Notes under the pieces: model-generated | The model's database searches: none | What the model was told of the DNA's origin: nothing | The model's input: the letters and a program-made list of their open reading frames with translations, nothing else | Part shown: in pieces, positions 10,748 to 36,005 of the stretch | Position numbering within the stretch: the first letter of the stretch is position 1 | How the letters are laid out: every line of letters begins with the position of its first letter | Assembly: GCA_964361105.1 (NCBI GenBank) | Contig: CAYHZG010000003.1 | Coordinates: forward strand, 1 to 37,419 | DNA from: an uncultured Candidatus Saccharibacteria bacterium | GTDB taxonomy: Bacteria; Patescibacteriota; Minisyncoccia; 2-02-FULL-40-12 | Reading direction: 5' to 3' | DNA: 37,419 nucleotides | Position numbers and translations under genes: made by a program

Positions 10748-10804
10748 TCCCGATTTTCATTTATGAAAATCGAGGATCCTCGATTCTGCAAAGCAGAATC
10801 GGGA
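10748..10804. repeat. Family B double-hairpin element, copy 1 (intergenic)
   Basis: TCCCGATT[TTCAT-TT-ATGAA]AATCGAGGATCCTCGATT[CTGC-AAA-GCAG]AATCGGGA. Confidence 0.85.
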
Positions 10805-10873
10805 AATTTAGAAAAGAGGAGATAAAAGGCACGAGATTGATTACGGCCTTTTTTTGTTCTAACTTGATAGCAA

Positions 10874-12172
10874 ATGTTCAAAGAGTTAGGTTTATTAGCC
10901 AGGACCTTAGATTTAGGAAGAAAAATAATCCCTCGGTCGGTTTTTGAATTTTTTCAGCCCTGGTATCATGGTCTTTTGGCTTTGTCCGGGGCGGTTATCT
11001 ACGGCTGGCCGTCAAAAAAATTAAAAGTAATCGGCGTGACCGGAAGCAAAGGCAAATCAACTACGGTTTATTTGATAAGCAGATTCTTAGAGGAAGCCGG
11101 ATATGGTGTAGCTTCTATAGGTTCTCTTGGTTTTAGGATTGTGGGGGAGGCAGGGAGCGAAGCGACCGTCGGAAGGGGGCGGAGCCCCCTCCGAGTATTA
11201 TTGGAATGGCCGAACAATTTGAAAATGACAATGCTGGGTCGGTGGAAAATTCAGAAATTTTTAGCCGAAGCGGTCAGAGCCGGTTGTCAGTTTGCGATTT
11301 TGGAAGTTACTTCAGAAGGAATTAAACAGAAAAGACACTGGGGCATAAAGTTTGATACCGCGGTTTTTACCAATCTTGAAAAAGAGCATATTGAAGCTCA
11401 CAAGTCGTTTGAAAATTATTTTAAGGCCAAGCAGCAACTTTTTAAAATAACCAAAAATACCCACATTCTTAATGCCGATTCGCCTTATATTGATTTATTT
11501 TCCAAATTCCCGGCTCAAAAGAAAATTTTCTACAGTTTACGAAATTATAATTTTAGAAGTAATCTTCAAGGCGAGTTTAACAAACTAAATATTTTAGCCG
11601 CGGCCGAAACAGTGAAAAATTATGGTGTTAGTCCGGGAATAATTCAGAAAGCACTGGATAAAATAAAAAACATTCCTGGTCGGTTTGAGTTTATCGATAG
11701 GGGACAAGATTTTAAAATTGTGATTGATTATGCTCATACGCCAGGATCCCTGGAGGCCGTGTATAAAACGTTAAAGGGTCTAATGTCTAAAGACCAGGGG
11801 CTAAAGCAAAGATTGATTTGTGTCTTGGGGGCCGCCGGGGGAGGAAGAGATAAATGGAAGAGACCAATTTTCGGTCAACTGGCTGAAGATTATTGCGACC
11901 GGATAATTCTTACCAATGAAGATCCTTATGATGAATCACCAGAAAAAATTGTTGATGAGGTGAATTCGGGAATAAAAAACAAAAAGAAGGTTGAAAAAAT
12001 TATGGATAGAAAGATGGCAATTAAGAAGGCCTTAACTTTAGCCGGAAAAAGCGATATAGTGGTGATAACCGGAAAGGGTTCGGAAATATCGATGGCCGTA
12101 GCCCAAGGTAAAAAAATTCCATGGTCTGAAAAGGATGTAGTTTTAGAAGTTTTAGAAGAGATAAAAAAATGA
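10874..12172 (+). CDS. murE: UDP-N-acetylmuramoyl-tripeptide synthetase (Mur ligase)
   Basis: IGVTGSKGKSTT P-loop, LEVTSEG, FTNLEKEHIEAH, PGRFE, DYAHTP, GGGRDKWKRP, NEDPYDE, GKGSE. Confidence 0.9.
   Translation: MFKELGLLARTLDLGRKIIPRSVFEFFQPWYHGLLALSGAVIYGWPSKKLKVIGVTGSKGKSTTVYLISRFLEEAGYGVASIGSLGFRIVGEAGSEATVGRGRSPLRVLLEWPNNLKMTMLGRWKIQKFLAEAVRAGCQFAILEVTSEGIKQKRHWGIKFDTAVFTNLEKEHIEAHKSFENYFKAKQQLFKITKNTHILNADSPYIDLFSKFPAQKKIFYSLRNYNFRSNLQGEFNKLNILAAAETVKNYGVSPGIIQKALDKIKNIPGRFEFIDRGQDFKIVIDYAHTPGSLEAVYKTLKGLMSKDQGLKQRLICVLGAAGGGRDKWKRPIFGQLAEDYCDRIILTNEDPYDESPEKIVDEVNSGIKNKKKVEKIMDRKMAIKKALTLAGKSDIVVITGKGSEISMAVAQGKKIPWSEKDVVLEVLEEIKK
11141..11197. repeat. GC-rich palindromic in-frame insertion in murE
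   Basis: GAGCGAAGCGA plus hairpin TCGGA(A)GGGGGC-GGA-GCCCCCTCCGA in an otherwise AT-rich gene; boundaries approximate. Confidence 0.7.
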
Positions 12173-12657
12173 AACCTAAATTGCTATTGCCTAAGTATAT
12201 AAAAAAAGAAAAACAAAAAAGATTTGAGATTTTAGAGCGGGCGGCTGATTTGGGGTTTAAGATTTTTGGTTCTTCGGCCAAAGAGCTTTTTAAAAATGCC
12301 GTTTACGCGATGGGTTATGCCCAAAAACCGGAAATTGTTGAACAATCGGCGGTCGGGGCATTAATCGGTCGGCTGAGGGGAAGGCGAATAAGCGAGGATT
12401 TTTTAATTGAGTCAATGGATTATAACACTCTCTTGGTTGATTTTTTAAGTGAGATATTGTCCCGTTCTGACAATCAGAACGCCGTTTTTTTTGATGTCAA
12501 GTTTAACAAATTCTCAGAACTTAAAATCGGCGGCCGAATTTATGGCGTTAAAGTTGATGATTTCAGTAAAAATATAAAGGCCGTGACTTATCACGAAGTC
12601 GACGTGAAAGAAAGTGAACCGGGGAAATGGGAGAGCCAATTGGTTTTTGACATCTAG
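12169..12657 (+). CDS. Archease family protein
   Basis: FEILERAADLGFKIFG, LLVDFLSEIL, IKAVTYH, C-terminal FDI. Confidence 0.85.
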   Translation: MKPKLLLPKYIKKEKQKRFEILERAADLGFKIFGSSAKELFKNAVYAMGYAQKPEIVEQSAVGALIGRLRGRRISEDFLIESMDYNTLLVDFLSEILSRSDNQNAVFFDVKFNKFSELKIGGRIYGVKVDDFSKNIKAVTYHEVDVKESEPGKWESQLVFDI

Positions 12658-12683
12658 TCAATAATAATTATATTTTAAATTTA

Positions 12684-13100
12684 ATGGACCACGAAAAAAA
12701 TCAACAACTTTTTTGGTTTTTAATAATATTTTTCTTGGTTCTTTTTGCCGGAGCAGTTTTCTTTTTTAATAAGGACTTGCCGAAAAATCAGGAGGCCAGT
12801 TTAAACGAACCAAAAAATAATAACGGCCGGGTCTATACGGTTTATTACACCAGCGGGGTTTTCAGCCCGACCAATTTACAAATTAACATCGGCGACACGG
12901 TCAGATTCGTTAATGATGGCCTTTTGCCGATAAGGGTTGTTTCTGATCCGCATCCCACCCATGACGCTCTTCCGGGCTTTGACAGCATTTCTGATATTCC
13001 GACCCAGAGCGTTTTTACCTTTACTTTTACTACTCGGGGTATTTTTGATTACCACAATGAAAGAAAAATTGAGCAAAAGGGGACTATAATAGTTAAATGA
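12684..13100 (+). CDS. Membrane-anchored cupredoxin-fold protein
   Basis: FSPTNLQINIGDTVRFVN, SDPHPTH, FTFTF, YHNE, GTIIVK. Confidence 0.8.
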   Translation: MDHEKNQQLFWFLIIFFLVLFAGAVFFFNKDLPKNQEASLNEPKNNNGRVYTVYYTSGVFSPTNLQINIGDTVRFVNDGLLPIRVVSDPHPTHDALPGFDSISDIPTQSVFTFTFTTRGIFDYHNERKIEQKGTIIVK

Positions 13101-13915
13101 TCTTTCTTTTTATTCAGGAACTCATACTTTTTGCCCTGGCTCAGCTGATTGGAATTTTCGTGGCTTTGAAAAGCCGGACTTTGATTCAGGGGCAGAATAT
13201 TACTATCGATTTTACGGCTGGCGAAATAATTATATTCCTGATTTTATTTGTCGCTTTTATTTATTTTTTAAGCCGGTTTTCTCATAAGTCAAAGATATTT
13301 TTCAGGTTGGTTTTAGGGCTGGTGGTATTTATCGGCAGTCAGACGGTTTTTTCTCTGTTTTTTGGCGAAGTGATTGTCTCGACCATTATTGCCATCGGAC
13401 TCGCCGTTTTGGTCTTGAAAGCAAAAATAATTTTACTCCATAATATCGGAATGATTTTGGCTTTAGCCGGGATTGGGGCGGTCCTTGGTCTATCCCTTAC
13501 TCCAATTTCGGTTGTTTTTCTTTTATTGATTTTGTCCTTCTACGACATTATTGCCGTTTATAAAACCGGGCATATGGTAAAGATAGCCGAGGAGATGATT
13601 AAAGCCAGGGCAATTTCCGGGATTGTTTTGCCTCAAACGATAAAGGATTGGTTTGGAAGTCTTGAGAATGTCCAGCCCGGCGGCCGTTTTATGATTTTGG
13701 GCTCTGGCGATGTTGTGATGCCTTTGATTCTAGTTGCTTCGGTTATTGGCTTTTACGGCCTATCCCGGGGGCTCGTTGTAATGCTTTTTTCAATGTTCGG
13801 CCTCTTTTTGACTTTTTATCTTTTTATAACCCAGAAAACGAGACGGCCAATGGCCGCTCTGCCGCCGATTGCGGCGATGTCAATAATCGGATATTTGGTT
13901 TCAATTGTTTTGTAG
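13097..13915 (+). CDS. Presenilin/SPP-like GxGD intramembrane aspartyl protease
   Basis: Multi-TM; FYDIIAVYKTGHM, LGSGD, AALPP (PAL-like motif). Confidence 0.85.
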   Translation: MIFLFIQELILFALAQLIGIFVALKSRTLIQGQNITIDFTAGEIIIFLILFVAFIYFLSRFSHKSKIFFRLVLGLVVFIGSQTVFSLFFGEVIVSTIIAIGLAVLVLKAKIILLHNIGMILALAGIGAVLGLSLTPISVVFLLLILSFYDIIAVYKTGHMVKIAEEMIKARAISGIVLPQTIKDWFGSLENVQPGGRFMILGSGDVVMPLILVASVIGFYGLSRGLVVMLFSMFGLFLTFYLFITQKTRRPMAALPPIAAMSIIGYLVSIVL

Positions 13916-13923
13916 TTTAGTTC

Positions 13924-14264
13924 GCAGCGTGGGAGTATCCAATTCGCGAAAAGCCTCTCTCGGCCGAAACCCTGTATCGACAACACCAATTTCTTCTCTT
14001 GAGACAATTCTTGGAAATGGCACGCCACTTTACTTGAATTGCCGACAAAATCGGCTCCTCCACCAATTTTGTCCTTTCGGCAATTTGGCTTACGCCATCC
14101 CAGTTCGTCTCTGTGGAGACTCGCATGGGGACTGCGTAAAGATGGCGGCCATTTCACAAGACACCCTCAGGTTCAGAAATCGGTGTTGTCTCATGGGTTT
14201 CGCGAACGGTTCTGAAATGGCTATACCCGAGAGGATTTCTGCAGTTTACTTTTCCCTCACTCGC
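13924..14264. ncRNA. Unidentified ~340-nt highly base-paired intergenic element (candidate ncRNA or palindromic mobile element)
   Basis: Nested complementary segments, e.g. GACAACACCAATTTCT 13979-13994 / AGAAATCGGTGTTGTC 14175-14190 and CGAAACCC / GGGTTTCG. Confidence 0.45.
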
Positions 14265-14280
14265 AATTATAATTTAAATA

Positions 14281-14865: not shown

Positions 14866-14872
14866 TGGTCGA

Positions 14873-14985
14873 TCCCGTTAGAAGTTAACCCTAACGGGAG
14901 TAAACATGAATTATCTTATTATAAAGTTTTATAATCTTTGCCACTGGTTTAAGGCGGTGGATGATCTGTAAAACTTCTAACGGGA
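14873..14985 (+). mobile_element. Family A element, copy 1 (113 nt), ending on the A of the downstream ATG
   Basis: TCCCGTTAGAAGTT...AACTTCTAACGGGA terminal inverted repeat; internal CCCTAACGGG. Confidence 0.8.
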
Positions 14986-15236: not shown

Positions 15237-15257
15237 AAAATTTTATTTCAATAAAAA

Positions 15258-17657
15258 ATGAGCGAATTCAAGATCAATAATTTTACCGTTAAAGACGAAC
15301 TCCCGGTAATTGCTTTAAAGGAGGTAGTTTTATTTCCGACCTTAATCGTTCCAAATATAATCATTGGCCGGCCTAAAACCATGGCCGCTTTGGGCAAAGC
15401 CATGATTGAAGATAAGCTGGTTATCTTTGTCGCTCAGAAAAATCTATCAGAAGAGGTCAGTCCGGAAAATCTTTATTCGGTCGGAACCCTGGGCCGGATT
15501 AATCTGGTTTTAAAGGCCAATGGCGGCACCGCCAGAATTGAAGTCGAAGGTCTTAAAAGAGTCAGAATTTTGAATTTTCCGAAAACCGAGCCGTATCTAG
15601 CGGCCAAAATTGAACCGCTTGATATTCAGAAAGGAGATAATCTTGAAGTTGAGGCCTTGGTTAGATCGGTTTTGGAGAATTTTGACAAGGTTTCAGAAGT
15701 GGTTAGGCCGCTCCCGCCGACCTTTTTTAATTTAATTAAAAGCATCAAAGACCCGGAGCAGGTTTTATCGCTGATTGTTTATCACTTGGGCTTCAATGTT
15801 GTTGACCAGCAAAGAATTTTGGAAACAACCGATATCAGAGAGGTGCTTAGAGAAATTAATAAACATTTGGTTAAAGAATTGGAAATTTTGGAAACCGAGA
15901 AAAAGTTGGCCAAGGAAACCAGAAAGCAGCTTGGTAAGATGCAAAAGGAGGTTTATCTGCGGGAACAGCTTCGGAGTATTGAAAAGGAATTGGGCTTGGC
16001 TGGAGAAAAAACCGAGTTTGAAATGCTTCGCAAAAAAATAAAAGATGCCAAAATGCCCAAAGAAGTCGAGGCCAAAGCAACCAAAGAACTTGAACGGATG
16101 GAAAAAATGCCTTCATTCAGCCCAGAAGTCGCCTATATCAGGACTTATCTTGATTGGCTGGTTGAACTGCCTTGGTCTAATTCGACCAAAAACAAGATAG
16201 ACATTAAAAAGGCAGCCAAAATTTTGGAGGAGGACCATTTTGGCCTTGAAAAAGCTAAGGAAAGAATTCTGGAGTATCTGGCCGTCCAAAAACAAGTTGG
16301 TAAGATTAAAGGCCCAATTCTTTGTTTTATGGGGCCGCCCGGAACCGGCAAAACCTCAATCGGCCAGTCAATCGCAAGGGCTCTCGGCCGGAAGTTTTTA
16401 AGAATTTCTCTTGGCGGCATCAGGGATGAAGCCGAGATAAGGGGCCACCGCCGAACTTATGTTGGTGCTTTGCCCGGCCGGATTATTCAAGGGATTCATA
16501 GCGTCAAGGTCAATAATCCGGTTTTTATGCTGGATGAGATTGATAAAATCGGCTATGACTTCCGGGGCGACCCGTCAGCCGCTTTGCTTGAGGCCTTGGA
16601 TCCTCAGCAAAACAATTCATTCTCTGACCACTACCTTGAGACACCCTTTGACTTATCCAATGTTTTCTTCATCACCACGGCCAATATCTTAGATACCGTT
16701 CCGCCGGCCCTGCGCGACCGTTTGGAAATAATTGAGTTTCCGGGTTACACCGAGCATGAAAAATTCCATATTGCCAAAGGATTTTTGATTCCTAAGCTTT
16801 TAAAAGAGCATGGTGTTGAAAAAATGGTCAGTTTTAATGATGAAGCAACCAAAGAAGTGGTCAGACGTTATACCCGCGAGGCCGGAGTGAGGGATCTTGA
16901 AAGGCAATTAGCCAAGGTGGCCAGGAAGAATGTCCGGAATTTAGTTGAATCAGGCAAAAGGGCCGGAAAAATTTCGGTTGATATTTCCTCATTAAGAAAA
17001 TTTTTAGGTCCAGAAAGATATATTTCTCAGCTCGCCGAAAAAAGAGATGAAGTTGGCGTGGCCACGGGCCTGGCCTGGACCTCAGTTGGAGGAGAAGTTT
17101 TGTCGGTTGAGGTGACTAAGATGCCGGGCAAGGGAAAACTGGAACTGACCGGTCACTTGGGCAATGTCATGAGAGAATCGGCCAAGGCAGCTTTGTCCTT
17201 TTCGAGAGCCTATGCCTCAAAAGCCAGCGACATTCTGAAAGATTTTTATAGCTACGATATTCATATTCATGTTCCTTCGGGCGCGATTCCCAAAGACGGC
17301 CCATCAGCCGGGATAACCATTTCTACGGCTTTGATTTCGCTTTTTACCGGAGCCAAAGTTAGAAAAGACGTGGCCATGACCGGCGAGGTAACATTGCGCG
17401 GCAAGGTTTTGGAAATCGGCGGGATTAAAGAAAAAGTTTTGGCGGCTCACCGAGCCGGCATTAAAAATGTGATTTTGCCCAAAGACAATGAAAAGGACTT
17501 AGACGACATACCCAAAGAAATAAATAAAGAAATGAAATTCATTTTTGTCGAGCATATGGGTGATGTTCTGAAGGCGGCTTTAAAGTGGCCCAAGGCGCCA
17601 AAAGGTGAGGTTATCCAACCGCGAAGCTTAATCGCTCAAATTCCGCGCATCTCATGA
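15258..17657 (+). CDS. lon: ATP-dependent protease La
   Basis: GPPGTGKTS Walker [27 protein letters not shown] catalytic Ser, IGGIKEK. Confidence 0.98.
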
Positions 17658-17658
17658 A

Positions 17659-17828
17659 TCCCGTTAGAAGTCGCCCTAACGGGTTAAACGAATAAAACAT
17701 CAAATGAATAAGAAAAGTAGCTCTGCGCATAAAACTAACAATGCAGACTGCGCAGTCCCGTTAGAAGCCGCGAGGGCCCGCAGCGTGCCTCTGCTTCTAA
17801 CGGGACGAAGCAGCGACTTCTAACTGGA
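17659..17828 (+). mobile_element. Family A element, copy 2, with a nested short copy; flanked by TGAA/TGAA
   Basis: TCCCGTTAGAAGTCGC...GCGACTTCTAACTGGA; TGAA at 17655-17658 and 17829-17832. Confidence 0.85.
17756..17805 (+). mobile_element. Family A short (50-nt) element nested in copy 2
   Basis: TCCCGTTAGAAG-CCGCGAGGGCCCGCAGCGTGCCTCTG-CTTCTAACGGGA. Confidence 0.85.
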
Positions 17829-18034
17829 TGAATCCCCCGAATAATGAATACATAGTTTTTCCCTCAGCCAAGTCACTTTTGACTATTGGCCTTGTTTCCG
17901 CGATTCTGGCGCCCATTGTCGGCATAATTCTGGGACTTTATTTTTTAAGAAGGCCGCAATTGGTCAAAGAAGGGAGAAGCATTATTTTGGTCGCTTTCAT
18001 TTGGTTAGCCGTCATTTTTATCATTGCTTTCTAA
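17828..18034 (+). CDS. Small two-TM membrane protein
   Basis: 68 aa; two hydrophobic helices; PIVGIILG. Confidence 0.65.
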   Translation: MNPPNNEYIVFPSAKSLLTIGLVSAILAPIVGIILGLYFLRRPQLVKEGRSIILVAFIWLAVIFIIAF

Positions 18035-19716: not shown

Positions 19717-19728
19717 TTTTTGAATCCG

Positions 19729-21168
19729 ATGAATAAAAAATCATTGTTTTTTATTCCTTTGATTTTTTTCCCGATTTTGTCCACCGCTTTGCGGTGGCTA
19801 CAAAATCGAGGATCCTCGATTAGTAAACAAAAACTTTTAGTTTTTGTACTAATCGGGACTTTTTCTTTTTTTACTTTTAATTTTTCAAGGGCCGACGTTC
19901 AACAGGATATTTCAGAAAGAGAAAGGCAAATTCAAGAACTGGAAAGGCAGAAAGAAGAGTATCAAAAACAAATTACTGAAAAACAGAGTGAAGCTCGAAC
20001 TTTGGAGGGCGAGATTTTTATTTTTGATACCGAAATCAAGAAACTTAAGCTGGAAATAAAGGCCTTGGACTTGGCTATTCAACAAACCGGCTTTGAAATT
20101 GACGAGACCATAAAAAATATAGACGAAACCCTTTCCAGAATCGAGAGAATCAAACAGAGCTTGGCTCAATTCATAAAGTTAGTCCATCAGAGCGACCAGG
20201 AAACCCTTCTTGAAATTTTACTGAAAAATCGTGACCTTTCTGACTTTTTCGGCAATCTTGAAAGTATCCGAGCTTCCCAAGAAAAAGCTCAAGTCACGAT
20301 CAAAGAATTAAAACAGTTAAGAGTGGAACTTGAACAAAAGCAGGACGAACTGGAACAAAGAAAAACCGAACAAATCGGCCTGAGAAACATTCAACAAATC
20401 CAGAAAAAAGAGGTTGACTCAAAGAAAAAAGAGAAAAACGACATTTTAAAAGTGACCAAGGGTGAAGAGAAAAAGTTTCAGGAACTGGTCAAAAAAACAA
20501 ACCAGGACATAGAGCGGCTAAGAGGCCAGGTAAGGTTTTTACTTGAGCAGGGGATTACTCTTGAAGAGGCCATAAAGTACGGGCAATTAGCCGCCACCCG
20601 AGTCGGCATCAGGCCTTCATTCCTTTTGGCAATTTTAGATGTTGAATCGGGCATTGGAAGAAATGTTGGTACCGGCAATTGGCTGGATGATATGTATAAT
20701 TGTTATTTGCGGCTTGGCAAGCCAACCAGGGCCGAAACCGAAAAGAACGCGTTTTTTGCGATAATCGGAAAGCTTGGCTTGGATGCCAATTCGGTAAAAG
20801 TTTCAAGGGCGCCTAGTTACGGCTGCGGCGGAGCGCTTGGCCCAGCCCAGTTTATTCCTTCAACCTGGCTTTTATATGAATCCGACGTGGCTCGTTTGAC
20901 TGGGCATGGTTTGCCTAACCCTTGGAGTATTGAAGATGCTTTTATGGCGGCGGCGATATATCTTTCCAATGCCGGAGCCACTAATCAAACCCGAGCGGCC
21001 GAGATAAGAGCCGCCAATATTTATTTGAGCGGAAAGGCCAATTGCCGTAAGAGTGTCTGCCGGTATTACTCAAATCTGGTTTTGCAAAAAGCAGCAGAGA
21101 TAGAAAAAGATTTGCCCCAAATAAGTAGCGGAGTTATCAACAGTTTTATTTTGTCCCTTTTTGAATAA
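19729..21168 (+). CDS. Coiled-coil (PcsB/CwlO-like) protein with C-terminal lytic transglycosylase (MltB/SLT_2-like) domain
   Basis: Long heptad region; LLAILDVES, GALGPAQFIPSTW, NPWSIEDAFMAAAIYL. Confidence 0.85.
   Translation: MNKKSLFFIPLIFFPILSTALRWLQNRGSSISKQKLLVFVLIGTFSFFTFNFSRADVQQDISERERQIQELERQKEEYQKQITEKQSEARTLEGEIFIFDTEIKKLKLEIKALDLAIQQTGFEIDETIKNIDETLSRIERIKQSLAQFIKLVHQSDQETLLEILLKNRDLSDFFGNLESIRASQEKAQVTIKELKQLRVELEQKQDELEQRKTEQIGLRNIQQIQKKEVDSKKKEKNDILKVTKGEEKKFQELVKKTNQDIERLRGQVRFLLEQGITLEEAIKYGQLAATRVGIRPSFLLAILDVESGIGRNVGTGNWLDDMYNCYLRLGKPTRAETEKNAFFAIIGKLGLDANSVKVSRAPSYGCGGALGPAQFIPSTWLLYESDVARLTGHGLPNPWSIEDAFMAAAIYLSNAGATNQTRAAEIRAANIYLSGKANCRKSVCRYYSNLVLQKAAEIEKDLPQISSGVINSFILSLFE
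19769..19858. repeat. Family B element, copy 2 (90 nt, in frame in the N-terminal region of the transglycosylase)
   Basis: TCCCGATTTTGT...ACAAAATCGAGGATCCTCGATTAGTA...TACTAATCGGGA. Confidence 0.85.
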
Positions 21169-21264: not shown

Positions 21265-21462
21265 ATGGTAAGGGATGGTTTTATGAACCTGATTACCGTG
21301 ATTGCAATTGTCGTAGTTGCTTTAGTTGCTGGATACTTTTTGGGTTTTAGTATAGGAAAGAAACAAGGAAGTCAGGTTCTTCAAATTTCAACTCCGACCC
21401 CAGGTGTAGATACTGGTTATCAGAATCCCTTTGAAGGAGTGAGACTCAACCCATTTAGATAA
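21265..21462 (+). CDS. Small single-TM hypothetical protein
   Basis: Hydrophobic N-terminus; NPF motifs; stop overlaps the next ATG; start uncertain. Confidence 0.6.
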   Translation: MVRDGFMNLITVIAIVVVALVAGYFLGFSIGKKQGSQVLQISTPTPGVDTGYQNPFEGVRLNPFR

Positions 21463-23021
21463 TGAAGCAAAGCTTCACAACTTTCCATATTTTATTTTTC
21501 AGCGGCCTTGTCGCTGTTTTTGTTTTATTTAGTTTTGTCTTGGCTCAGGAAATAGATAAAGAAAGAATTATTCAAATTGTGCAAACCCAAGGCGGTCCGG
21601 GCGGATGTCGAGATGAAGCAAGTTGCCGGACTTTTTGCGACAATCCCAATAATGTTGAGACCTGCCTTAATTGGGCTCACCAAAACGGTTTAATTTCTTC
21701 TGAAGAGGCAGACAGAGCCGAGAGGTTGTCAAAAGTAGGCAGAGAATTTTCTGGTCCGGGCGGATGCCGGAGCCATGAGGAATGCGAGAGATTTTGTCGC
21801 CAGCCAGAAAATCAGGATGTTTGTTTGGATTTTGCCGTTCAGCAAGGGTTTTTAACTGCTAGCGAAGCCGAAAGGATTAAAGAGTTTAGAAGGCAAGCCG
21901 AAGGAGCCAGAGAAGAATTTGAAGTAGAAATTGACCCAGATTTTGATGAAGATAGGGCAGCCCAAATTTTAGAGACCCAAGGCGGTCCGGGTGGATGTCG
22001 GACTTTTGAGGAGTGCGAGGAATTTTGTGAAGAACCGCAAAATCAAGAGGCCTGCTTTACCTTTGCCGAAAGGCACGGTTTATTTAATAACCAGGAAGCC
22101 GCAAGGAAAATCAAAAGGATTATAGAGGAAGGCGGTCCCGGGGGATGTCGAGGCGAAAGACAATGTCGGGAGTTTTGCGAAAATCCCGATAATTTTGAGG
22201 TTTGTATTGAGTTTGCCCAGAGACACGAATTTATAAAACCGGAAGAAGTGGAAAGGGCAAGGCGGGGGATAAGAGCTTTGAGAGAAGGCGGTCCAGGCGG
22301 CTGTAGAGGACCAAGAGAGTGCGAGGCCTTTTGTTCTAATCCGGCTAATCAGGAAATATGTTTTGAGTGGGCAAAAAAACACGGTTTTGTTTCAGAAGAG
22401 CAGATAAGAATGATGGAAGAATTTAGGCAAAGAAGAGAAGAAATTGAGAGAAAACATGAAAGAAGGGGCGGCGAGTTTAGACCGTCGGAGGGTTTTCATC
22501 CACCGGGTGAGTTTTTAGGGCCGGGCGGGTGTGTTGGGGCTGATCAATGCCGAAGGTATTGTGAAGACCCGGCGCATAAGGAAGAATGTGAGAGATTTAG
22601 GACTTCAAGCGGTCAGCAACCACCCGGTTTTGGAGGAACGCCGCCGCCGGGTGGGATAACGCCACATATCTGTCCGATGATGCCGACAGTTGATTCGTGC
22701 CCTCCTGGCCACCGAAAAGAAGTGTCTTTCAGTTCGCCGGAATGCGGCACTTACTACCAATGTGTTTTAGAAGATTCTCCTTTACCCGGCTACAGTCCTT
22801 CTCCTACACCAACGTATACGGAAAGCCCATCTCCATATCCAACTTATTCGCCATCACCCACGGTCTCTCCTACTTACGAAGATCCGGCCACTCGCTGCGC
22901 TAAAGAAGGCGGCACCTGGAATTCCCAAACCTCGACCTGTGTCTTTGAAAAAAGCGGCTCAATCCTTCTAAACACCGGTGCTTATATAAAAGGCGCCTTT
23001 AGAGACTTCTTCTTTAGATAG
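21462..23021 (+). CDS. Secreted Cys-rich repeat protein (6 x GPGGC-x5-C-x3-C-x8-C)
   Basis: Signal peptide; six repeats; Pro/Ser/Thr linker; C-terminal CxxxGGxW motif. Confidence 0.85.
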   Translation: MKQSFTTFHILFFSGLVAVFVLFSFVLAQEIDKERIIQIVQTQGGPGGCRDEASCRTFCDNPNNVETCLNWAHQNGLISSEEADRAERLSKVGREFSGPGGCRSHEECERFCRQPENQDVCLDFAVQQGFLTASEAERIKEFRRQAEGAREEFEVEIDPDFDEDRAAQILETQGGPGGCRTFEECEEFCEEPQNQEACFTFAERHGLFNNQEAARKIKRIIEEGGPGGCRGERQCREFCENPDNFEVCIEFAQRHEFIKPEEVERARRGIRALREGGPGGCRGPRECEAFCSNPANQEICFEWAKKHGFVSEEQIRMMEEFRQRREEIERKHERRGGEFRPSEGFHPPGEFLGPGGCVGADQCRRYCEDPAHKEECERFRTSSGQQPPGFGGTPPPGGITPHICPMMPTVDSCPPGHRKEVSFSSPECGTYYQCVLEDSPLPGYSPSPTPTYTESPSPYPTYSPSPTVSPTYEDPATRCAKEGGTWNSQTSTCVFEKSGSILLNTGAYIKGAFRDFFFR

Positions 23022-25491: not shown

Positions 25492-25602
25492 CCCCGTTAG
25501 AAGTAGCCCTAACGGGTCAGTAAATTAAACAGTTATTAATTAAAGTATTTTCAGAGACACATTGGTCACTCCTATGTGTTGCTGTTACTACTTCTAACGG
25601 GG
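25492..25602 (+). mobile_element. Family A element, copy 3 (111 nt), ending on the G of the GTG start
   Basis: CCCCGTTAGAAGTAG...CTACTTCTAACGGGG 15-bp inverted repeat; internal CCCTAACGGG. Confidence 0.8.
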
Positions 25603-27092
25603 TGAAGATAATTAATATTGCTTCAAGCGATAACTTTGAAGACATTTTAGAAGCAGTCCGAACCTCTGAATCAGCCGGCCTGATTTTGATTGTTCCAAAA
25701 TCAAACCGGGTTTTTAAAAGTGGGGCCAGGGTTAATAAACTAAAAGATTACTTTGATAAATTAGGCAAAGACGTTTCTATAATTTCATCCAGCGACGAGA
25801 TTATTAAAAATGCTAACTTAGCTGGCTTTAATATTCTTCAAGAAACCAAGATGGCCGATAAAAAAGACGAGGAGATTGTTTCTCTGTATTCAGAAGAGCC
25901 GCCTCAAGAAAAAGAGATTAAGAGTATTCCCCATCCCGTCAGAGTCAGAGCTAGAATCAGTAATAAAAAGATTATTTTTATCTTTTTAGCCGTGGCCCTG
26001 CTTTCACTTGGTTTTATTGCTTTTATTTCAGTTAGCCAGGCAAAAATAAAAATAACTCCCGGCAAAAAAGATTTTTCCGTGAATATTCCAGTAATGGTTT
26101 CTAGTAGTATCACTAGGCCTGATGAGGTCTATGGAATGATACCCGGCGAATTGATTCAGGTTGAAAAAGTTGTATCAAAGACATTTACAGCTAGTGGCGA
26201 TAAAGAAGTTTTTCAGAAAGCCGAAGGCGAGATAATTATTTATAATAACTTTAGCGCGGTTCCACAGGTATTAGTGGCCACAACCAGATTCCAGACACCC
26301 GAAGGTTTGGTTTTTAGGATCTTAAAGACGGTCACGGTTCCAGGAAAAGTAAAGGTTGGCAACGAACTTAAGCCAGGCGAGATTAAGGCAAAAGTTATCG
26401 CTGACCGGGCTGGCGAAGAATACAATATTGAACCGACCGAATTCAAAATCCCCGGTTTTTTAGGGGGCCCGAAATATCAAGCATTTTACGCCAAGTCGTT
26501 CAGTAGTTTTTCTGGCGGTTTTGTGGGTCGGTCCAGTTTCGTAACCAAAGATGACTTGAAAAAAGCAGAAGAGCAAGTTCGGCAGGAAGCGATAAGCGAT
26601 GTAAAAAATGAATTGGCTTTACTAAAGGATTTTAAAATTTTAGAAGAGGCCCTGGAAATAGAAACGGAAAAAATGCCTGACTCAGCCAAGGATGGCGATT
26701 TGGTCAAAGAATTTAAGGTAAGTTTAAAGGCAAGAGCAAAAGCACTAGCTTTCAAAGAAAGCGATGTTATGGATTTTATCTCTCAATACATAAGCAATTC
26801 GCAGGGTCTCATGATTATTAGAAACGGACTGAGTATAAATTATAACGAGCCGAAGCTGGACAAAGCGAAAATGGAACTTTCTTTTAAGCTGGTTTCTCGG
26901 GGCAAGACCGCTGAAAATGTAGATAAGGAAAGGATAATCACCGAGATTTTAGGTAAAAAGGCACCCGAAGTTAAAAAGTATCTTGGCAATCTGAAAGAAA
27001 TTGAATCAGCCCAGGTTCTTCTTTCGCCCTTTTGGATCAAGGCAGTCCCTAAAAACAGGGATAAAATCAGAGTGGAGATCATAATTGAATAG
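25602..27092 (+). CDS. Single-TM protein with baseplate J-like domain
   Basis: KAEGEIIIYN, LVATTRF, VIADRAGEEYNI, FSGG, LSPFW. Confidence 0.65.
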   Translation: MKIINIASSDNFEDILEAVRTSESAGLILIVPKSNRVFKSGARVNKLKDYFDKLGKDVSIISSSDEIIKNANLAGFNILQETKMADKKDEEIVSLYSEEPPQEKEIKSIPHPVRVRARISNKKIIFIFLAVALLSLGFIAFISVSQAKIKITPGKKDFSVNIPVMVSSSITRPDEVYGMIPGELIQVEKVVSKTFTASGDKEVFQKAEGEIIIYNNFSAVPQVLVATTRFQTPEGLVFRILKTVTVPGKVKVGNELKPGEIKAKVIADRAGEEYNIEPTEFKIPGFLGGPKYQAFYAKSFSSFSGGFVGRSSFVTKDDLKKAEEQVRQEAISDVKNELALLKDFKILEEALEIETEKMPDSAKDGDLVKEFKVSLKARAKALAFKESDVMDFISQYISNSQGLMIIRNGLSINYNEPKLDKAKMELSFKLVSRGKTAENVDKERIITEILGKKAPEVKKYLGNLKEIESAQVLLSPFWIKAVPKNRDKIRVEIIIE

Positions 27093-27844: not shown

Positions 27845-28017
27845 GTTTTTGTCCAAGAGCGAAGCGATTGGTAACAAAAAGTTACCGAGCACATAAGGCG
27901 TTATGTGCTCGGTGTCAGAGCACACAATAAAATTGTGTGCTCGATCGAGCACTTAACAGAGTTAAGTGCTCTGACTCAATGTTGTAGCTATTCGCTTCGC
28001 TCATAGACAACATTGGC
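27845..28017 (+). promoter_or_regulatory. Structured rpsM leader (family D, copy 1) with three GAGCAC...GTGCTC hairpins
   Basis: GAGCGAAGCGA 27857-27867 pairs with TCGCTTCGCTC 27992-28002; three internal hairpins. Confidence 0.6.
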
Positions 28018-31887: not shown

Positions 31888-31925
31888 TGTCAAAATTTAC
31901 GATGCCGCATTGGGCAAAACGATAA

Positions 31926-31995
31926 GGAGTCATAACTCGGTTGCTTCATCTGCTATAAGTTATGACTCCAGTTTCGGCGGGTTTTCTGTTTTTAT
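31926..31995 (+). terminator. Hairpin after rpsI, possible operon terminator
   Basis: GGAGTCATAACT...AGTTATGACTCC 12-bp stem, then T-rich sequence. Confidence 0.45.
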
Positions 31996-32049
31996 TTGAC
32001 TCCATTTCTTCTTTTAAATACGATTAAGCCAGCACTTAGGAGGGAGGTG
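31996..32049 (+). promoter_or_regulatory. Sigma70-like promoter and strong Shine-Dalgarno for the orphan gene
   Basis: TTGACT 31996-32001, 17 nt, TACGAT 32019-32024; GGAGGTG 32043-32049. Confidence 0.6.
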
Positions 32050-32053
32050 AGTG

Positions 32054-32632
32054 ATGCGATTAGTTACTCCAGTCTTTTTGACGGTGTTGCTGTTTTTTTC
32101 GTGGCCGGCGACCGCGAGTCAAGCAGTCCAAAGGCAAAAACTCTGTTCAGAAATGGACGAGAAAGAAAGGCGCAAGACCGAGCGCTGTAAAACTGACCAG
32201 GAGCGGCGCGAAGACGAGCAAAAACGCCATCTGGCTGAAATCGCCGAGAAAGAGAAGCCGACCAAGAGTTCCTTTATGAAATGGGTCCATTTGGACGGCT
32301 ACTGGATTCAGAGCGCAAGCTCAAATATGTTTCAGGGTCTTGCCGGAATGCATGTTGTAGTTTTTGAGGAAGGCCGTCTCCAGCTCTACGGTCCGCCCGG
32401 CATTATCCTTGTCCGCCAGCAGGTCAGCAAAGAGGAGCATCAGCTCCACTTTGGCATTACTTGGGGATTTAGTTTTCGTTTATTCGATATTCGTGTTCCG
32501 GGTACAGACAATGAGGTCAGGGTCTTTGGCAATTTGGCCAAGGTTTGGCTCCAGGGCGTCAATCAGGATATTCCCGGAGCGAGCATTTCAGCAATAGACA
32601 TGGTTGGCCTTTCGGTCACTTTTGCCAAGTAG
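32054..32632 (+). CDS. Hypothetical secreted protein, probably horizontally acquired
   Basis: Signal peptide (ATA-SQA); visibly GC-richer codons; own promoter, SD and terminator. Confidence 0.7.
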   Translation: MRLVTPVFLTVLLFFSWPATASQAVQRQKLCSEMDEKERRKTERCKTDQERREDEQKRHLAEIAEKEKPTKSSFMKWVHLDGYWIQSASSNMFQGLAGMHVVVFEEGRLQLYGPPGIILVRQQVSKEEHQLHFGITWGFSFRLFDIRVPGTDNEVRVFGNLAKVWLQGVNQDIPGASISAIDMVGLSVTFAK

Positions 32633-32644
32633 GTCCGCCAAGCG

Positions 32645-32698
32645 GCCCCGCCACCAAGAAAGAAAGGCCTTGTCCTTCCAGCTTGGCGGGGCTTTTCT
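32645..32698. terminator. Terminator between convergent genes
   Basis: GCCCCGCCA...TGGCGGGGC followed by TTTT. Confidence 0.65.
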
Positions 32699-32701
32699 AA
32701 T

Positions 32702-33580
32702 TCAGATAATTAAGTCGTTCCTCCCGCCACTTGGGTCTACTTCCACGAAATTAGTTTTGCCGCTTTCGGTCAGATAAATCAGATGCCAGCTTGTTTTAAA
32801 CCATAAGACCCGCTCTATTTTTTCACTGGTTTTTAAAATCACTTCTTTGTGGCTTTTTTCAAAATACGGCGGCTCATTTTCATTTTTAAGCCAGAGGATG
32901 CTTATCTCATTTTGGCCGACAACGGCCAGTTTTTTGTTGTCCGGCGACAGGACTAAATCGTTTGCAGACGAAGAATGAATATTTTCCCAATTGCCATCTG
33001 AACTTAATAAGAACACACCGGGCGCCTTGAGGTCTTTTGAGGCCAAGTAGATCTCCTTCTCCAAAACTTTTAATTCAAAGTTCTTAATGTACACCGATTC
33101 GGAAGATATTTTTTCTATTTTTTCATCTTCGGTTTTTCGATAAAGCAAGCCGTCTTTTTTATTTATGAAATAACTGGGGTTTTCTTTTACTGGTTCTGAA
33201 CTTTCAATGAAATCATTTATCTCTCCCTGGTCCGGCAAGTAAAGATGAGTCAATTGGTTGGCTTCGCCGGATTTAATTTCAATAGTTTTGCTGATTTTTG
33301 GAAATCCTTCTTTTGAAAATTTTAAGTCATATTTCCCGGGCAGAAGATTTTTTTCAATGAAAGTATTGGAAAAGAACGAGGTTTTTCCCTTGAGGTGGCC
33401 GTTAATGTAAACCTCAACGCCATCCAGATTTGCCTTTGTAAAAAGACCGCCGGTTTCCACCCATTTTAAATTAGCGAAATTAAATTGATAGCCGTAAGCG
33501 TATGAAATTATAAAATAACTCAAAACAAAAAAAGCCAGAAACGAAGTGATTAAAATTGCGGTCTTCGTACGTTTACTCAT
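32702..33580 (-). CDS. Membrane-anchored PEGA-domain protein
   Basis: N-terminal TM, YAYGY, TGGL, VYING, NLLPGKYDLKFSKEGF, LSPDNKKLA. Confidence 0.8.
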   Translation of the reverse strand: MSKRTKTAILITSFLAFFVLSYFIISYAYGYQFNFANLKWVETGGLFTKANLDGVEVYINGHLKGKTSFFSNTFIEKNLLPGKYDLKFSKEGFPKISKTIEIKSGEANQLTHLYLPDQGEINDFIESSEPVKENPSYFINKKDGLLYRKTEDEKIEKISSESVYIKNFELKVLEKEIYLASKDLKAPGVFLLSSDGNWENIHSSSANDLVLSPDNKKLAVVGQNEISILWLKNENEPPYFEKSHKEVILKTSEKIERVLWFKTSWHLIYLTESGKTNFVEVDPSGGRNDLII

Positions 33581-33662
33581 GAGAGTTTTTATTTTATACT
33601 TCTATTAATAAATCGTCAATTTGACTTCCGGCTGTTTTTTGATACTTTTTTAATACTTTGAA

Positions 33663-33778
33663 CCCCGTTAGAAGTAGCCCTAGCGGGTGAAACACTCGGG
33701 GTATTAAATATATAACAATAGTAGTTCTGCGTGCATAACCGATTATTACGGACTGCGAAGCAGCTACTTCTAACGGGG
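33663..33778 (+). mobile_element. Family A element, copy 5 (116 nt) before mreB; flanked by TGAA/TGAA
   Basis: CCCCGTTAGAAGTAGC...GCTACTTCTAACGGGG 16-bp inverted repeat; TGAA at 33659-33662 and 33779-33782. Confidence 0.85.
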
Positions 33779-34779
33779 TGAATAAAATTGGCATTGACTT
33801 AGGCACAACCAATACTCTGGTTTTTGTTCCGGGTAACGGAATCAGAATTAATGAACCCTCGGTGGTCGCTGTTTCTTTGTTCGATAATCGGATTTTAGCG
33901 GTCGGGAACGCAGCCAAAGAAATGGTCGGCCGGACGCCGGATACGATTTCGGTAATCAAGCCCCTGAAGGATGGAGTCATTGCCGACTATAAAGTGACTC
34001 AGGCGATGATCAGGTATTTTATCAAAAAAGCGTTCAGCCGATTCAATTTTTTCAAAAAAGAGGTTTTGATTTCGGTGCCGGTGTCCATAAATTCCACCGA
34101 AAGAAGGGCGGTAATCGAAGCCGGAATGAATGCCGGGGTCAAGACGGTTTATCTGGTCAAGGAACCGGTGCTTGCGGCGATCGGTGCCGGCATCCCGATT
34201 AATTCTTCTTACGGCCACATGGTGGTTAATATCGGCGGCGGCATGACCGAGGTGGCGATAATCAGTTTGGGCGGAGTGGTGGTAAGCGCCGGCATAAGAT
34301 GCGGCGGCAATAAAATTGACCAGGCCATCATTGATTATGTTAAAAAAAAGCACAACTTGGCCATCGGCGAGAGAACGGCGGAGTTAATTAAGATGAATAT
34401 CGGAACGGCAGTTAGGATTTCCGGTGAAGAGAAAATTTCAATAAGGGGCCGCGACTTGATTTCGGGCCTGCCAAAAACAATTGATTTGACTTCCAATGAA
34501 GTCAATGAAGCCATCCATGACCAGCTCAAAGAAATCAGTCAGGTTATAAAAAGAGTTTTGCAGGAAACCCCGCCCGAACTCTGTGCCGACGTGATCGAGC
34601 AGGGAATTATTTTAACCGGCGGCGGGGCCCTGCTTAAGAATATTGATACTTTTGTAACCAGAGTAATCGGCGTCCCGGCTCATCTGGCCGAAGAACCATT
34701 ACTTTGCGTGGCCAAAGGCGCCGGAGTAGTGTTGGATAACTTAGACATTTATAAGAGGAATATAATCACTAGGAGATGA
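33778..34779 (+). CDS. mreB: MreB/Mbl actin-like protein
   Basis: IGIDLGTTNT, EPSVVA, PLKDGVIADY, AAIGAG, GRDLISGLPK, TPPEL, LTGGGALL. Confidence 0.95.
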   Translation: MNKIGIDLGTTNTLVFVPGNGIRINEPSVVAVSLFDNRILAVGNAAKEMVGRTPDTISVIKPLKDGVIADYKVTQAMIRYFIKKAFSRFNFFKKEVLISVPVSINSTERRAVIEAGMNAGVKTVYLVKEPVLAAIGAGIPINSSYGHMVVNIGGGMTEVAIISLGGVVVSAGIRCGGNKIDQAIIDYVKKKHNLAIGERTAELIKMNIGTAVRISGEEKISIRGRDLISGLPKTIDLTSNEVNEAIHDQLKEISQVIKRVLQETPPELCADVIEQGIILTGGGALLKNIDTFVTRVIGVPAHLAEEPLLCVAKGAGVVLDNLDIYKRNIITRR

Positions 34780-36005
34780 AAATTGCTCTTATCCACGACT
34801 GGCTGACTCGGCTTGGCGGAGCCGAGAGAGTGTTGATTGCTTTACATAAGATTTTTCCCGAAGCTCCGATCTACACTCTTTTTCATGACCAAAAATTTAC
34901 CTCAGAATATCTGCCTCGAGCAAAAATAATTCCTTCTTTTCTCCAAAAAATCCCAAATATCAAAAAACTGCACCCCTGGTTTAAGATTTTAATGCCTTCG
35001 GCAGTGGAATCTTTGGATTTATCCGGTTTTGATTTGATTATTTCTTCAAGCCATGAGTTTAGCCACGGCGTTTTAGTAAAGCAAAAAACCAGCCACATCT
35101 GCTTTTATCACAGTCCTTCCCGGATTATCTGGGACCGGGCTCACGAATATTTAAGTGATTTTAAAGAAAGGGGACGGGGAAGATTTAAATTGTCGCTAAT
35201 AAAACTGGGCCAGCATTTTTTACGGCTGTGGGACTACACCTCTAGTCAAAGGCCGGACATTATTTTAGCAAACTCTAGACATGTGGCTGAAAGGATAAAA
35301 AAATACTATGGCAGAGAAGCAAAAGTGGTATATCCTCCGATTTCGTTCCCGATGGATTCATTGGGATTACGAAATCGAGAGTCCTCGATTTTCCAACCAA
35401 ATCAGATTGATTTGGGGAAAATCGGGACGCCATACTTTCTGATTGTTTCCCAGCTTTACCCGCACAAGAACATTGATTTAGCGATTGAAGCATTTAAAAA
35501 CTTGCCAAACCTTAATTTACTGACAATAGGGGACGGACCGAAAAAAAAGAATTTAGAATCACGAATCAAAAATTATGGGAATGTAAAATTATTAGGATTT
35601 GTGCCGGATTCGGAACTGCCTTATTATTATCAAAACTGCTTAGCTTATCTTATTTGTAACGAAGAGGACTTTGGCCTTTCGCCGGTTGAAGCAATGTCTT
35701 TTGGCAAACCAGTTCTGGCTTTAAGGCGAGGCGGTGCAATTGAGACAGTTTTGGAGGGTATAACTGGAGAATTCTTTGACCCCATTAGAGGTAAAAACAC
35801 GCTGCGGGCCCTCGCGGCCTCTAACGGGGTAAATGAACTTGTAAAAGCTGTTCAAAATATTAGTGAAAAAATTAAAAATGGCCGCTACGATTCCAAGACC
35901 ATAAAAAAACATTCCGAAAAATTTAGCTTTGAACGGTTTAAAAAAAGGATTCTGGATTTAGTAGATAATTTGGATTATACTGGAAAAACAAGAAAAACAA
36001 TATGA
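34776..36005 (+). CDS. Glycosyltransferase family 4 carrying two palindromic in-frame insertions
   Basis: MKIALIHDWL..GGAERVL, ANS, YPP, GDGP, EEDFGLSPVEAM.FGKPVLA. Confidence 0.93.
   Translation: MKIALIHDWLTRLGGAERVLIALHKIFPEAPIYTLFHDQKFTSEYLPRAKIIPSFLQKIPNIKKLHPWFKILMPSAVESLDLSGFDLIISSSHEFSHGVLVKQKTSHICFYHSPSRIIWDRAHEYLSDFKERGRGRFKLSLIKLGQHFLRLWDYTSSQRPDIILANSRHVAERIKKYYGREAKVVYPPISFPMDSLGLRNRESSIFQPNQIDLGKIGTPYFLIVSQLYPHKNIDLAIEAFKNLPNLNLLTIGDGPKKKNLESRIKNYGNVKLLGFVPDSELPYYYQNCLAYLICNEEDFGLSPVEAMSFGKPVLALRRGGAIETVLEGITGEFFDPIRGKNTLRALAASNGVNELVKAVQNISEKIKNGRYDSKTIKKHSEKFSFERFKKRILDLVDNLDYTGKTRKTI
35335..35427. repeat. Family B element, copy 3 (in frame in GT4)
   Basis: CTCCGATTTCGT...ACGAAATCGAGAGTCCTCGATTTTCC...GGAAAATCGGGA. 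Confidence 0.8.
35780..35829 (-). mobile_element. Family A short (50-nt) element in frame in GT4
   Basis: Reverse complement reads CCCCGTTAGAGG-CCGCGAGGGCCCGCAGCGTG-TTTTTA-CCTCTAATGGGG; same length and core as 17756-17805. Confidence 0.85.

Follow-up and report, generated by a model that had tools for sequence, protein, structure and literature searches.

Double-hairpin insertions in a Candidatus Saccharibacteria genome share their stem with an element carrying a small GIY-YIG nuclease and tRNA genes

Introduction

The closest described relatives of the repeats reported here, termed family B, are the Ssn nucleases with their hairpin repeats and the Rickettsia palindromic elements (RPEs). Ssn proteins (family cd10448) are single-domain GIY-YIG enzymes that cut single-stranded DNA beside the hairpin repeats (NTS/SRM) flanking their gene, and a mobile origin was raised by the authors (Chenal et al. 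2025, PMC11893778). Each SRM is a lone, oriented hairpin of conserved sequence and rarely lies in a gene (2% in N. meningitidis), and the main text of that paper mentions neither tRNA nor Patescibacteria (PMC11893778). Family B likewise combines a small gene for a single-domain GIY-YIG protein with a bracketing hairpin repeat that recurs across the genome, but its unit consists of two abutting free-armed hairpins with two-fold symmetry and a different sequence, the gene sits within one of the arms, 10 of the 21 copies in the source genome lie in genes, and tRNA genes are carried as cargo. RPEs are palindromes of ~150 bp that encode a conserved peptide and lie in frame in unrelated genes, as reviewed in PMC10969869. 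Short palindromes inserted in frame into unrelated genes are common to both; family B differs in its length (36–93 nt), its use of three frames, the lack of a conserved peptide beyond the core and the existence of a nuclease-carrying form.

REP/REPIN sequences with their RAYT enzymes and the ends of IS200/IS605 elements form bulged hairpins, produce no target duplication and spread non-autonomously. Family B shares all three features, but no link to an HUH transposase was found (the core occurs at 0/8 Y1 loci), and 10/21 of its copies in the source genome lie in long ORFs, whereas REP sequences are extragenic. With MITEs it has terminal inverted repeats in common (6-bp ends), but it generates no target duplication, and GIY-YIG rather than a transposase was the only protein detected between its ends, in arms of 262–292 nt and up to 450 nt. 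Fungal mobile ORFs carry replacement gene ends. SegB of phage T4 is a free-standing GIY-YIG homing endonuclease tied to tRNA genes, with a 27-bp double-stranded site as its target (PMC2330249). SegB and the fungal ORFs resemble family B in the link between GIY-YIG and tRNA genes and in taking a target copy along as they spread; SegB, however, lacks hairpin ends and short derivatives, and the B nuclease lacks a separate DNA-binding domain. Double-hairpin elements (DHEs) of fungal mitochondria are organellar, have a GC content above 75%, consist of two adjacent hairpins, lie between genes or in RNA genes and are inferred to be mobile; the relevant passages of two accounts name no mobiliser (PMC10085805, PMC3787672). 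Family B is similarly short with two adjacent hairpins, but it is bacterial, has AT-rich arms and carries nuclease and tRNA cargo.

For palindromic repeats that go in frame into genes (RPE-like) and for double hairpins, no mobiliser is known in the literature searched; that search also found no description of the present element.

Three copies in the window

The window is the whole analysed stretch of 37,419 nt. An earlier note, made from its sequence alone, had described three family B copies, all of which were recovered at the same positions and with the same architecture (Table 1). Copy 1 is flanked by ORF 10264–10740 on one side and a Mur ligase gene on the other. Copy 2 forms a 30-codon in-frame insertion within the predicted signal peptide of its host protein, which has orthologues in 38/40 relatives, and copy 3 supplies the inter-domain linker of the glycosyltransferase (29/31 residues encoded by the copy). 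Both intragenic copies indeed keep the frame open, with the predicted peptides NRGSSI and NRESSI. Copy 3, previously called slightly diverged, is diverged to a greater extent: its left end CTCCGA and inner partner TCGAGAG are each changed at two positions, and the changed end still pairs with the changed partner. On either strand, all three copies form a pair of abutting hairpins (z = -6.5 to -12, 200 dinucleotide shuffles).

Table 1. Family B copies, their host genes and a family A hairpin in the window
Feature	Position	Length (nt)	Strand	Description
Copy 1	10748..10804	57		Short form, two short arms without bulges; intergenic, preceded by G
Copy 1 central core	10770..10783	14		Junction between its two hairpins
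Copy 2	19769..19858	90		Two long arms with a 2-nt inner bulge in each
Copy 2 central core	19806..19819			
Copy 2 host gene	19720..21168		+	Coiled-coil protein, SLT_2 transglycosylase domain (Pfam PF13406)
Copy 3	35335..35427	93		Two long arms; inside ORF 34776-36005
Copy 3 central core	35375..35388			Variant
Copy 3 host gene	34776..36005		+	Family 4 glycosyltransferase (Pfam PF00534/PF13439)
Family A single hairpin	35781..35828	48		Second in-frame insertion in glycosyltransferase ORF 34776-36005; not family B

Copy number and distribution

A genome search for the 14-nt core, with no more than 1 mismatch allowed, gave 19 matches versus 0–1 in each of 10 shuffles, so the repeats are not due to chance. 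Allowing up to 3 mismatches, the genome-wide search that the earlier note had suggested returned 21 copies, 10 of them in long ORFs. Across 105 genomes the element is patchy, being present in 41 at 1 to ~40 copies each, and its hosts are ultra-small groundwater bacteria and Bacteroidales. In the family of the window organism, short copies were found in 6/8 genomes. Viral contigs gave 4 core matches, none with arms. Some copies are clearly passengers of larger repeats, with three near-identical copies at one site of such a repeat in the source genome (G000) and about ten in another genome (G016). Several copies lie within low-complexity heptamer tracts.

Evidence for insertion

The window copies had been interpreted as insertions, with ancestral peptides and an absence of further copies as the opposite outcome. 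When the host proteins were aligned with their orthologues, as the earlier note had proposed, for both host genes the inserted peptides proved absent from 19/19 orthologues, and further copies turned out to be numerous. The MAFFT alignment of copy 2 opened no gap and was left out of this evidence. Copy 1 is missing from a relative's contigs, which show the joint 10737>10805 (short side 24–27 nt); the gene upstream of it had no match in 5 relatives, and genomes therefore provided no orthologous empty site.

One repeat in the source genome, with three filled and five empty copies, defines the exact ends of the element. A G adjoins the insertion in 141/144 cases versus about 38% expected, and both this rule and the exact ends hold in two phyla. 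Target site duplication amounted to 0–1 nt in 130/144 cases, near the shuffle level, and the empty sites are exact; junction repeats of 5–8 nt were present in 10/144 cases, and those inspected sat in tandem tracts. The contigs contained neither read-level excision nor a same-strain empty allele, and for copy 3 those of four runs yielded no clean empty allele.

Length is a multiple of 3 in 32/37 in-ORF copies compared with 46/107 outside ORFs, and the in-ORF copies use all three reading frames (16, 14, 6). Since the frame is kept while all three frames are used, the inserted peptides look tolerated rather than selected.

Fold and covariation

Each hairpin consists of 3 bp, a 1-nt inner bulge, 9 bp, an optional 2-nt inner bulge and a loop of mostly 3 nt, and the two hairpins abut with zero spacer. 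The ends and inner bulges are fixed, while the AT-rich arms are free in sequence yet covary almost perfectly, which bears out the earlier statement that structure rather than sequence is conserved: the arms differ and stay self-complementary. Stem position 1 is paired in 161/164 arms versus 69 after shuffling. The 6-bp ends are complementary in 148/168 complete elements, and variant ends covary with their inner partners and not with each other. The fold is symmetric and forms on both strands, and G-T pairs on the coding strand are no commoner than A-C pairs (4 vs. 3 of 373, small numbers).

A cloverleaf fold, in which the outer ends pair and the core forms its own hairpin, was rejected by the pairing in variant units: end-to-inner pairing was kept in 10/28, versus 1/21 for end-to-end pairing and 0/17 for core self-pairing, in a partner search that scored pairing and thus leans to end-to-inner; two other covariation tests are free of this bias. 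Copying of the arms from local flanks gave no signal and was also rejected (short-arm/flank likeness of 6.36 vs. 6.34 for shuffled pairs). Loops carry a pyrimidine in 53/83 of the 5′ hairpins and a purine in 55/83 of the 3′ hairpins, a pattern that is unchanged by reverse complementation and shows no strand polarity. An Rfam search of the window and four loci at the gathering threshold returned tRNA matches only.

A full-length form with a GIY-YIG nuclease and tRNA cargo

Full-length elements were found in relatives at 23 distinct loci, with a ~82-aa GIY-YIG gene inside one arm. In copies 2 and 3 the long arms have the same 9-bp-plus-bulge stem that encloses this gene, and the first and last codons of the gene are mostly part of the stem. 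The full-length form with its nuclease and tRNA cargo is not visible from the window sequence alone.

The protein comprises the nuclease domain only (PF01541, 49.3 bits with a cut-off of 22.6, 83 aa), and residues Y5, Y16, G18, R26, H30 and E62 are shared by all 17 sequences compared (mean column identity 63%). A DNA-only search for arms of 262–292 nt in 105 genomes yielded 26 matches, in which a GIY-YIG gene was present in 9/10 with a real stem versus 0/16 without a stem. It was the sole protein cargo of true long arms, in a search covering arms of 262–292 nt and up to 450 nt. Of the 17 best nuclease matches in 401 genomes, 12 are enclosed by an arm and another 3 adjoin a copy; with profile A3, the top 10 of 14 matches were all inside an arm, 3 of these coming from outside the training set. 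The B-bracketed nucleases, most of which were found through similarity to one another, cluster but do not form one clade (6–8 changes vs. 16 shuffled). The closest solved structures are the UPF0213 proteins 1ywl and 1zg2 and the SLX1 homolog 7wme, and NCBIfam gave a weak TIGR01453 match in 1/3 nuclease proteins. Searches with the nuclease returned no match in plasmids and one weak match in phages. Three nuclease copies (L215, L223 and L289) are broken by stops.

The source assembly yielded no B-type nuclease (best match 69.6 bits vs. 106–132 for bracketed ones), nor did 8 genomes of the window organism's family. A bracketed nuclease was detected in only 3/11 genomes with at least 8 copies, in assemblies that are incomplete and often lack tRNA loci. 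Co-occurrence of nuclease and short copies is weak (9/14 vs. 32/91 genomes, p = 0.045), with kin not independent and some matches being the element's own arm, and is not used as support.

An intact tRNA gene is carried by 14 of the 23 full-length nuclease elements and sits in the other arm. Removal in silico restored a host tRNA with the same anticodon in 9/18 tRNA-carrying elements, including the tRNA-Cys copy of the source genome (G000 C8:416-580); the test failed in 9/18, mostly with the outer tRNA decayed or an element end missing. A tRNA-Ala-plus-end pattern, which was too strict, matched nothing in 105 genomes. Elements disrupt tRNA genes and also nest inside each other.

A motif scan found no Ssn-like proteins near NTS, while an HMM search found 3 in 133 loci. 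These three GIY-YIG proteins share 29–38% identity with the B nucleases, group in a separate clade on a long branch (support 100) and score 41–56 bits on the B profile versus 106–132 for members. Judging from sequence, the B nucleases probably do not belong to the clade of these NTS-adjacent proteins, which serve as stand-ins for cd10448.

Proposed mechanism and alternatives

Copies 1–3 are probably inserted gene-less short forms of the two-hairpin nuclease/tRNA element, spread by a nuclease predicted to bind folded single-stranded hairpins and to nick beside them. This reading starts from the observed anatomy, the precise G-adjacent insertion without duplication, the presence or absence in relatives, the nuclease and tRNA cargo and the common stem. 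Family B is thus probably selfish, and its spread would be the work of an enzyme type new to the mobilisation of DNA. The nuclease would act in trans on short copies, binding folded hairpins in single-stranded DNA and nicking beside them. GIY-YIG enzymes only hydrolyse, and the remaining steps of insertion would therefore fall to repair synthesis and ligation by the host, in the simplest case through copying of the element into a nicked empty strand. Arm complementarity would be kept in two ways: copies that cannot fold would go unrecognised, and one stem strand would be re-copied from the other. A spare tRNA would let the element occupy an essential tRNA gene, and in protein genes the survivors would be in-frame insertions at tolerant places. 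The homologous Ssn family, which cuts single-stranded DNA beside the hairpin repeats around its gene, also speaks for this reading. Against it count the lack of a detected cognate nuclease in the source assembly and in 8/11 high-copy genomes, the failure of the B-bracketed nucleases to form one clade, the copies that spread as passengers of larger repeats, the absence of excision or a same-strain empty allele from the contigs and the 9/18 tRNA-carrying elements that failed the same-anticodon test.

More tentatively, and with some doubt on our side, family B may represent a new class of bacterial mobile element built on a ~82-residue GIY-YIG nuclease and no transposase. The element strand would pair with the empty strand, so that two hairpins and two flanks form a perfect four-way junction, which the nuclease would resolve on the empty strand beside G; host repair would then copy in the element. 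The arms would serve as open cargo bays for the nuclease gene, a replacement tRNA and nested copies, each nuclease type would have its own hairpin family (A, B and others), and stranded copies would give rise to new protein segments such as the glycosyltransferase linker.

HUH chemistry accounts for bulged single-strand hairpins and for insertion without duplication, and the short copies could accordingly be REPIN-like and moved by an HUH (Y1/RAYT-type) tyrosine transposase, with the GIY-YIG gene and tRNA as caught cargo. PF01797 genes are present in 3/5 high-copy genomes tested, most of the high-copy genomes being without a detected B nuclease. However, no PF01797 match was found in G000, G005 and G006 (10–18 copies), 2/5 genomes without copies have four PF01797 genes each, the core occurs at 0/8 Y1 loci (within 1.9–3.2 kb), and true long arms hold no protein cargo but GIY-YIG (9/10); we consider this explanation unlikely. 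It is also improbable that no dedicated enzyme operates today and that the copies spread as passengers of larger repeats and through host template switching and recombination, the nuclease form being either a fossil of the ancestor or a homing cassette in its own right. The copies repeated at one larger-repeat site in G000 and G016, those in heptamer tracts and the lack of a detected B nuclease in the window organism's family are consistent with such passive spread, but 258/288 arms are distinct with mostly unique flanks, the G rule and exact ends extend across two phyla, and short arms resemble their flanks no more than shuffled pairs do.

A domesticated system like SsnA/NTS in Neisseria would cut incoming single-stranded DNA and limit recombination at marked loci, as shown for SsnA (PMC11893778), and the predicted active site of the B nuclease is conserved. 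Its patchy presence, the broken nuclease copies, the disrupted tRNA genes and the nested elements make domestication very unlikely here. We give hardly any credence to a role as structured RNA, be it a terminator, a stabiliser or a small intron, with selection keeping the peptides or the RNA fold: the folds are very stable and about half of the copies are intergenic, but the element has no Rfam match, its fold is symmetric on both strands with the few G-T and A-C pairs balanced, three frames are in use, the in-frame bias shows that splicing does not remove it, and split tRNAs are accompanied by a replacement.

The same ends now link the short element to the nuclease-carrying form, and the insertion rule (beside G, no duplication) and the conserved shape define exact substrates, so that an 82-residue protein and a handful of oligonucleotides are enough to test how the element moves. 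Spread by the B nuclease, the reading we favour, would carry the Ssn idea over to another GIY-YIG group and account for split and duplicated tRNA genes, as well as for odd peptide inserts, in both Patescibacteria and Bacteroidales; it would also offer very small structure-guided DNA nickases.

Relation to family A

The earlier note had matched the termini of families A and B and hinted at a shared mobiliser. The CCCG...CGGG termini are common to both, but the preceding T is not, the base before CCCG in 24 family A copies being T in 12 and C in 12. A shared mobiliser found no support: family A ends bracket a small GIY-YIG gene in 2/3 pattern matches, and it is of a different type. The A-bracketed proteins and all 19 B-bracketed nucleases fall on opposite sides of a weak branch, and the B-type C-terminal motif is present in 18/19 B-bracketed versus 0/2 A-bracketed proteins. 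Given this separate position in the tree and the absence of the motif, the enzymes of the two families are probably of one kind yet distinct, as far as protein sequences indicate. The family A insert in the glycosyltransferase adds 13 residues that are absent from 19/19 orthologues.

Family B Copies Are Insertions

The three family B copies proposed in the earlier note were all found where it had placed them. The genome assembly of the window, G000 (524 kb, 87.6% complete), contains 21 copies, and shuffled genomes gave only 0–1 family B core matches each. Ten of these copies lie inside long ORFs, all ten with a length that is a multiple of three.

Locations of family B copies and of related or neighboring features
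Feature	Location	Context
Family B copy 1	window 10748–10804	intergenic
Family B copy 2	window 19769–19858	first 50 codons of SLT-domain protein gene
Family B copy 3	window 35335–35427	inside family 4 glycosyltransferase gene
Compound family A element	window 17657–17842	
Repeat family with ends as in the C21 GIY-YIG bracket	near window 27885–27914	
Long ORF	window 130–4860	no Pfam match
Long ORF	window 21462–23021	no Pfam match; repeated cysteine-containing units
Long ORF	window 25602–27092	no Pfam match
Element with tRNA cargo only	G000 C8:416–580	splits tRNA-Cys gene in anticodon
Small GIY-YIG gene	G000 C2:1474–1674	in own inverted repeat
Small GIY-YIG gene	G000 C1:24430–24627	in own inverted repeat
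Small GIY-YIG gene	G000 C21:2375–2554	in own inverted repeat

The copies in the window are insertions. The peptides of copies 2 and 3 were absent from all 19 best orthologue loci examined per host gene (19 of the 40 and 19 of the 38 genomes with a match for the two genes), and in silico removal of copy 2 left a signal-peptide-like start similar to that of the orthologues. The alternative that these peptides are ancestral and that no further copies exist is contradicted by such orthologues and by the copy number in G000. A larger repeat in G000 occurs three times with a family B element and five times without it; comparison of the filled and empty forms shows that the insert runs precisely from TCCCGA to TCGGGA and is not accompanied by a duplication, and tRNA copies agree with these ends. 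Copy 1 is missing from contigs of a relative (two runs of one study), which is weak evidence because its short side is under 30 nt. Immediately outside one end, a G was present in 141 of 144 complete short elements. The compound element of family A, a separate single-hairpin family, was missing from a relative's contigs in three of four runs, with sides of 41–132 nt.

The frame was kept by 32 of 37 copies in ORFs, a count that is in part a product of the definition, because any long ORF must run across the element, and all three frames were used. Selection on these copies therefore acts on the open frame and not on the peptide. In orthologues of the glycosyltransferase, the inter-domain linker measures 15–86 residues; copy 3 encodes 29 of the 31 linker residues in the window, so the element has taken the place of the host linker, which was lost. 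The linker is an insertion hotspot (L139, L140 and L148 in relatives): other inserts reach 86 residues, one derives from the larger repeat in which family B also sits, and there are several low-complexity tracts.

Hairpin Anatomy and Arm Covariation

Every family B copy consists of two hairpins without a spacer. Unit 1 reads TCC-CGA, arm, TCG, a single bulged base and GGA, and unit 2 is its mirror image. End variants covary with their inner partners rather than end with end; in copy 3, the left end overlaps host Pro-Pro codons and the inner partner is altered to match. Across 278 distinct units, arm lengths peak at 11–16 and 29–31 nt, and most loops measure 3 nt. The inner strand carried a net 2-nt bulge in 81 of 135 long arms (after base pair 9 in 71 of the 81), and none of the 135 had such a bulge on the outer strand.

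In 24 long elements, both sides had changed at 25 of 36 predicted pairs, with one-sided changes rare. The first free arm position was paired in 161 of 164 arms, chosen without any stem filter, versus 69 in shuffles. The central proposal of the earlier note, that structure is conserved rather than sequence, is borne out by this covariation and pairing. Among the short elements, whichever strand is read, hairpin 1 tends to have a pyrimidine loop (53/83) and hairpin 2 a purine loop (55/83).

A Full-Length Form Carries a Nuclease and Often a tRNA

Following small GIY-YIG genes near family B copies led us to the full-length form. At loci L170 and L171, a tRNA-Ala gene is interrupted at its anticodon by the element, whose arm 1 contains a GIY-YIG gene of ~82 aa and whose arm 2 contains an intact tRNA-Ala; this arrangement occurs at 3 of 36 loci, two of the three being identical. 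A profile search of 401 genomes returned 17 loci, with the gene inside an arm at 12, beside a copy at three and unrelated at two. The unbiased figure comes from a DNA-only search: a GIY-YIG gene in 9 of 10 true long arms versus 0 of 16 chance pairings. With duplicates counted once, 23 distinct elements carry the nuclease, 14 with a tRNA and nine with a short second arm. Family B is a real mobile double-hairpin family whose parent form carries a nuclease and a tRNA.

The stem around the nuclease gene, which usually includes its first and last codons, has 9 bp and a 2-nt bulge. Copies 2 and 3 share these features in their long arms, which therefore resemble nuclease arms that have lost the gene. 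Some elements carry a tRNA as their sole cargo; one of these, in G000, holds in its arm an intact tRNA-Cys that differs from the one it splits. In silico removal of the element restored a tRNA with the anticodon of the cargo in 9 of 18 cases. Spare or split tRNAs had been struck again by further copies in nested insertions (L079, L213, L017, L210). Nuclease-carrying elements in protein genes (L218, L283, L295, L220), presumably including a triosephosphate isomerase-like start and a UvrA-like end, adjoin a second copy of the gene's start or end, which would preserve the function of the host gene.

Nuclease Identity and Candidate Mobilisers

The B nuclease has a match to PF01541, its active-site residues are invariant, and the structures nearest in sequence are UPF0213 and SLX1-like. 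Three Ssn-like proteins adjacent to NTS hairpins are homologues of the B nuclease but stand apart from it. One study describes SsnA as binding a hairpin in single-stranded DNA and cutting within a few bases of it (PMC11893778). The B nuclease would, by analogy, likely nick at the hairpins of its own element, with the insertion then completed, we infer, by host repair; we consider this mechanism reasonably probable. Several observations argue against the nuclease as mobiliser: no B-type nuclease was found in the window's assembly or in the other seven genomes from its family, such a gene is present in only 3 of the 11 genomes with high copy numbers, the B-bracketed proteins do not form one clean clade, and some copies travel within larger repeats. 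In principle, the chemistry would be better explained by an HUH transposase, but no association between such an enzyme and family B was seen.

The mobiliser that the earlier note proposed as common to families A and B is not supported. Family A has 24 copies in G000, and of its three long-spaced end pairs across 105 genomes, two have a GIY-YIG gene between them (L314, L315); these nucleases group apart from the B nucleases and have another C-terminal motif. Each of the three small GIY-YIG genes of G000 lies in its own inverted repeat. The overall pattern is one of several hairpin families, each probably with its own small nuclease.

Distribution and Relation to Known Systems

Family B works like Ssn/SRM (PMC11893778) combined with in-frame insertion of the RPE type (PMC10969869). 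It fails membership of these, of DHE (PMC10085805, PMC3787672) and of SegB (PMC2330249) on at least one feature each. A search of the open-access literature found no description of the element.

Among 105 genomes from the order, 41 carry the element, and a wider scan gave at least 110 stretches, with many Patescibacteria and Bacteroidales records. Viral matches were attributable to chance. The highest number seen was ~40 copies in one genome (G455), which also has two bracketed nuclease genes, and another (G016) holds about ten near-identical copies within one larger repeat (L236–L239, L241, L242, L244, L247–L249). The bracket of the C21 GIY-YIG gene of G000 has the ends of a repeat family that occurs in the window as well, near 27885–27914. 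At L458–L461, tRNA-Ser halves lie next to another GIY-YIG subtype, accompanied by a GC-rich hairpin family of a different kind.
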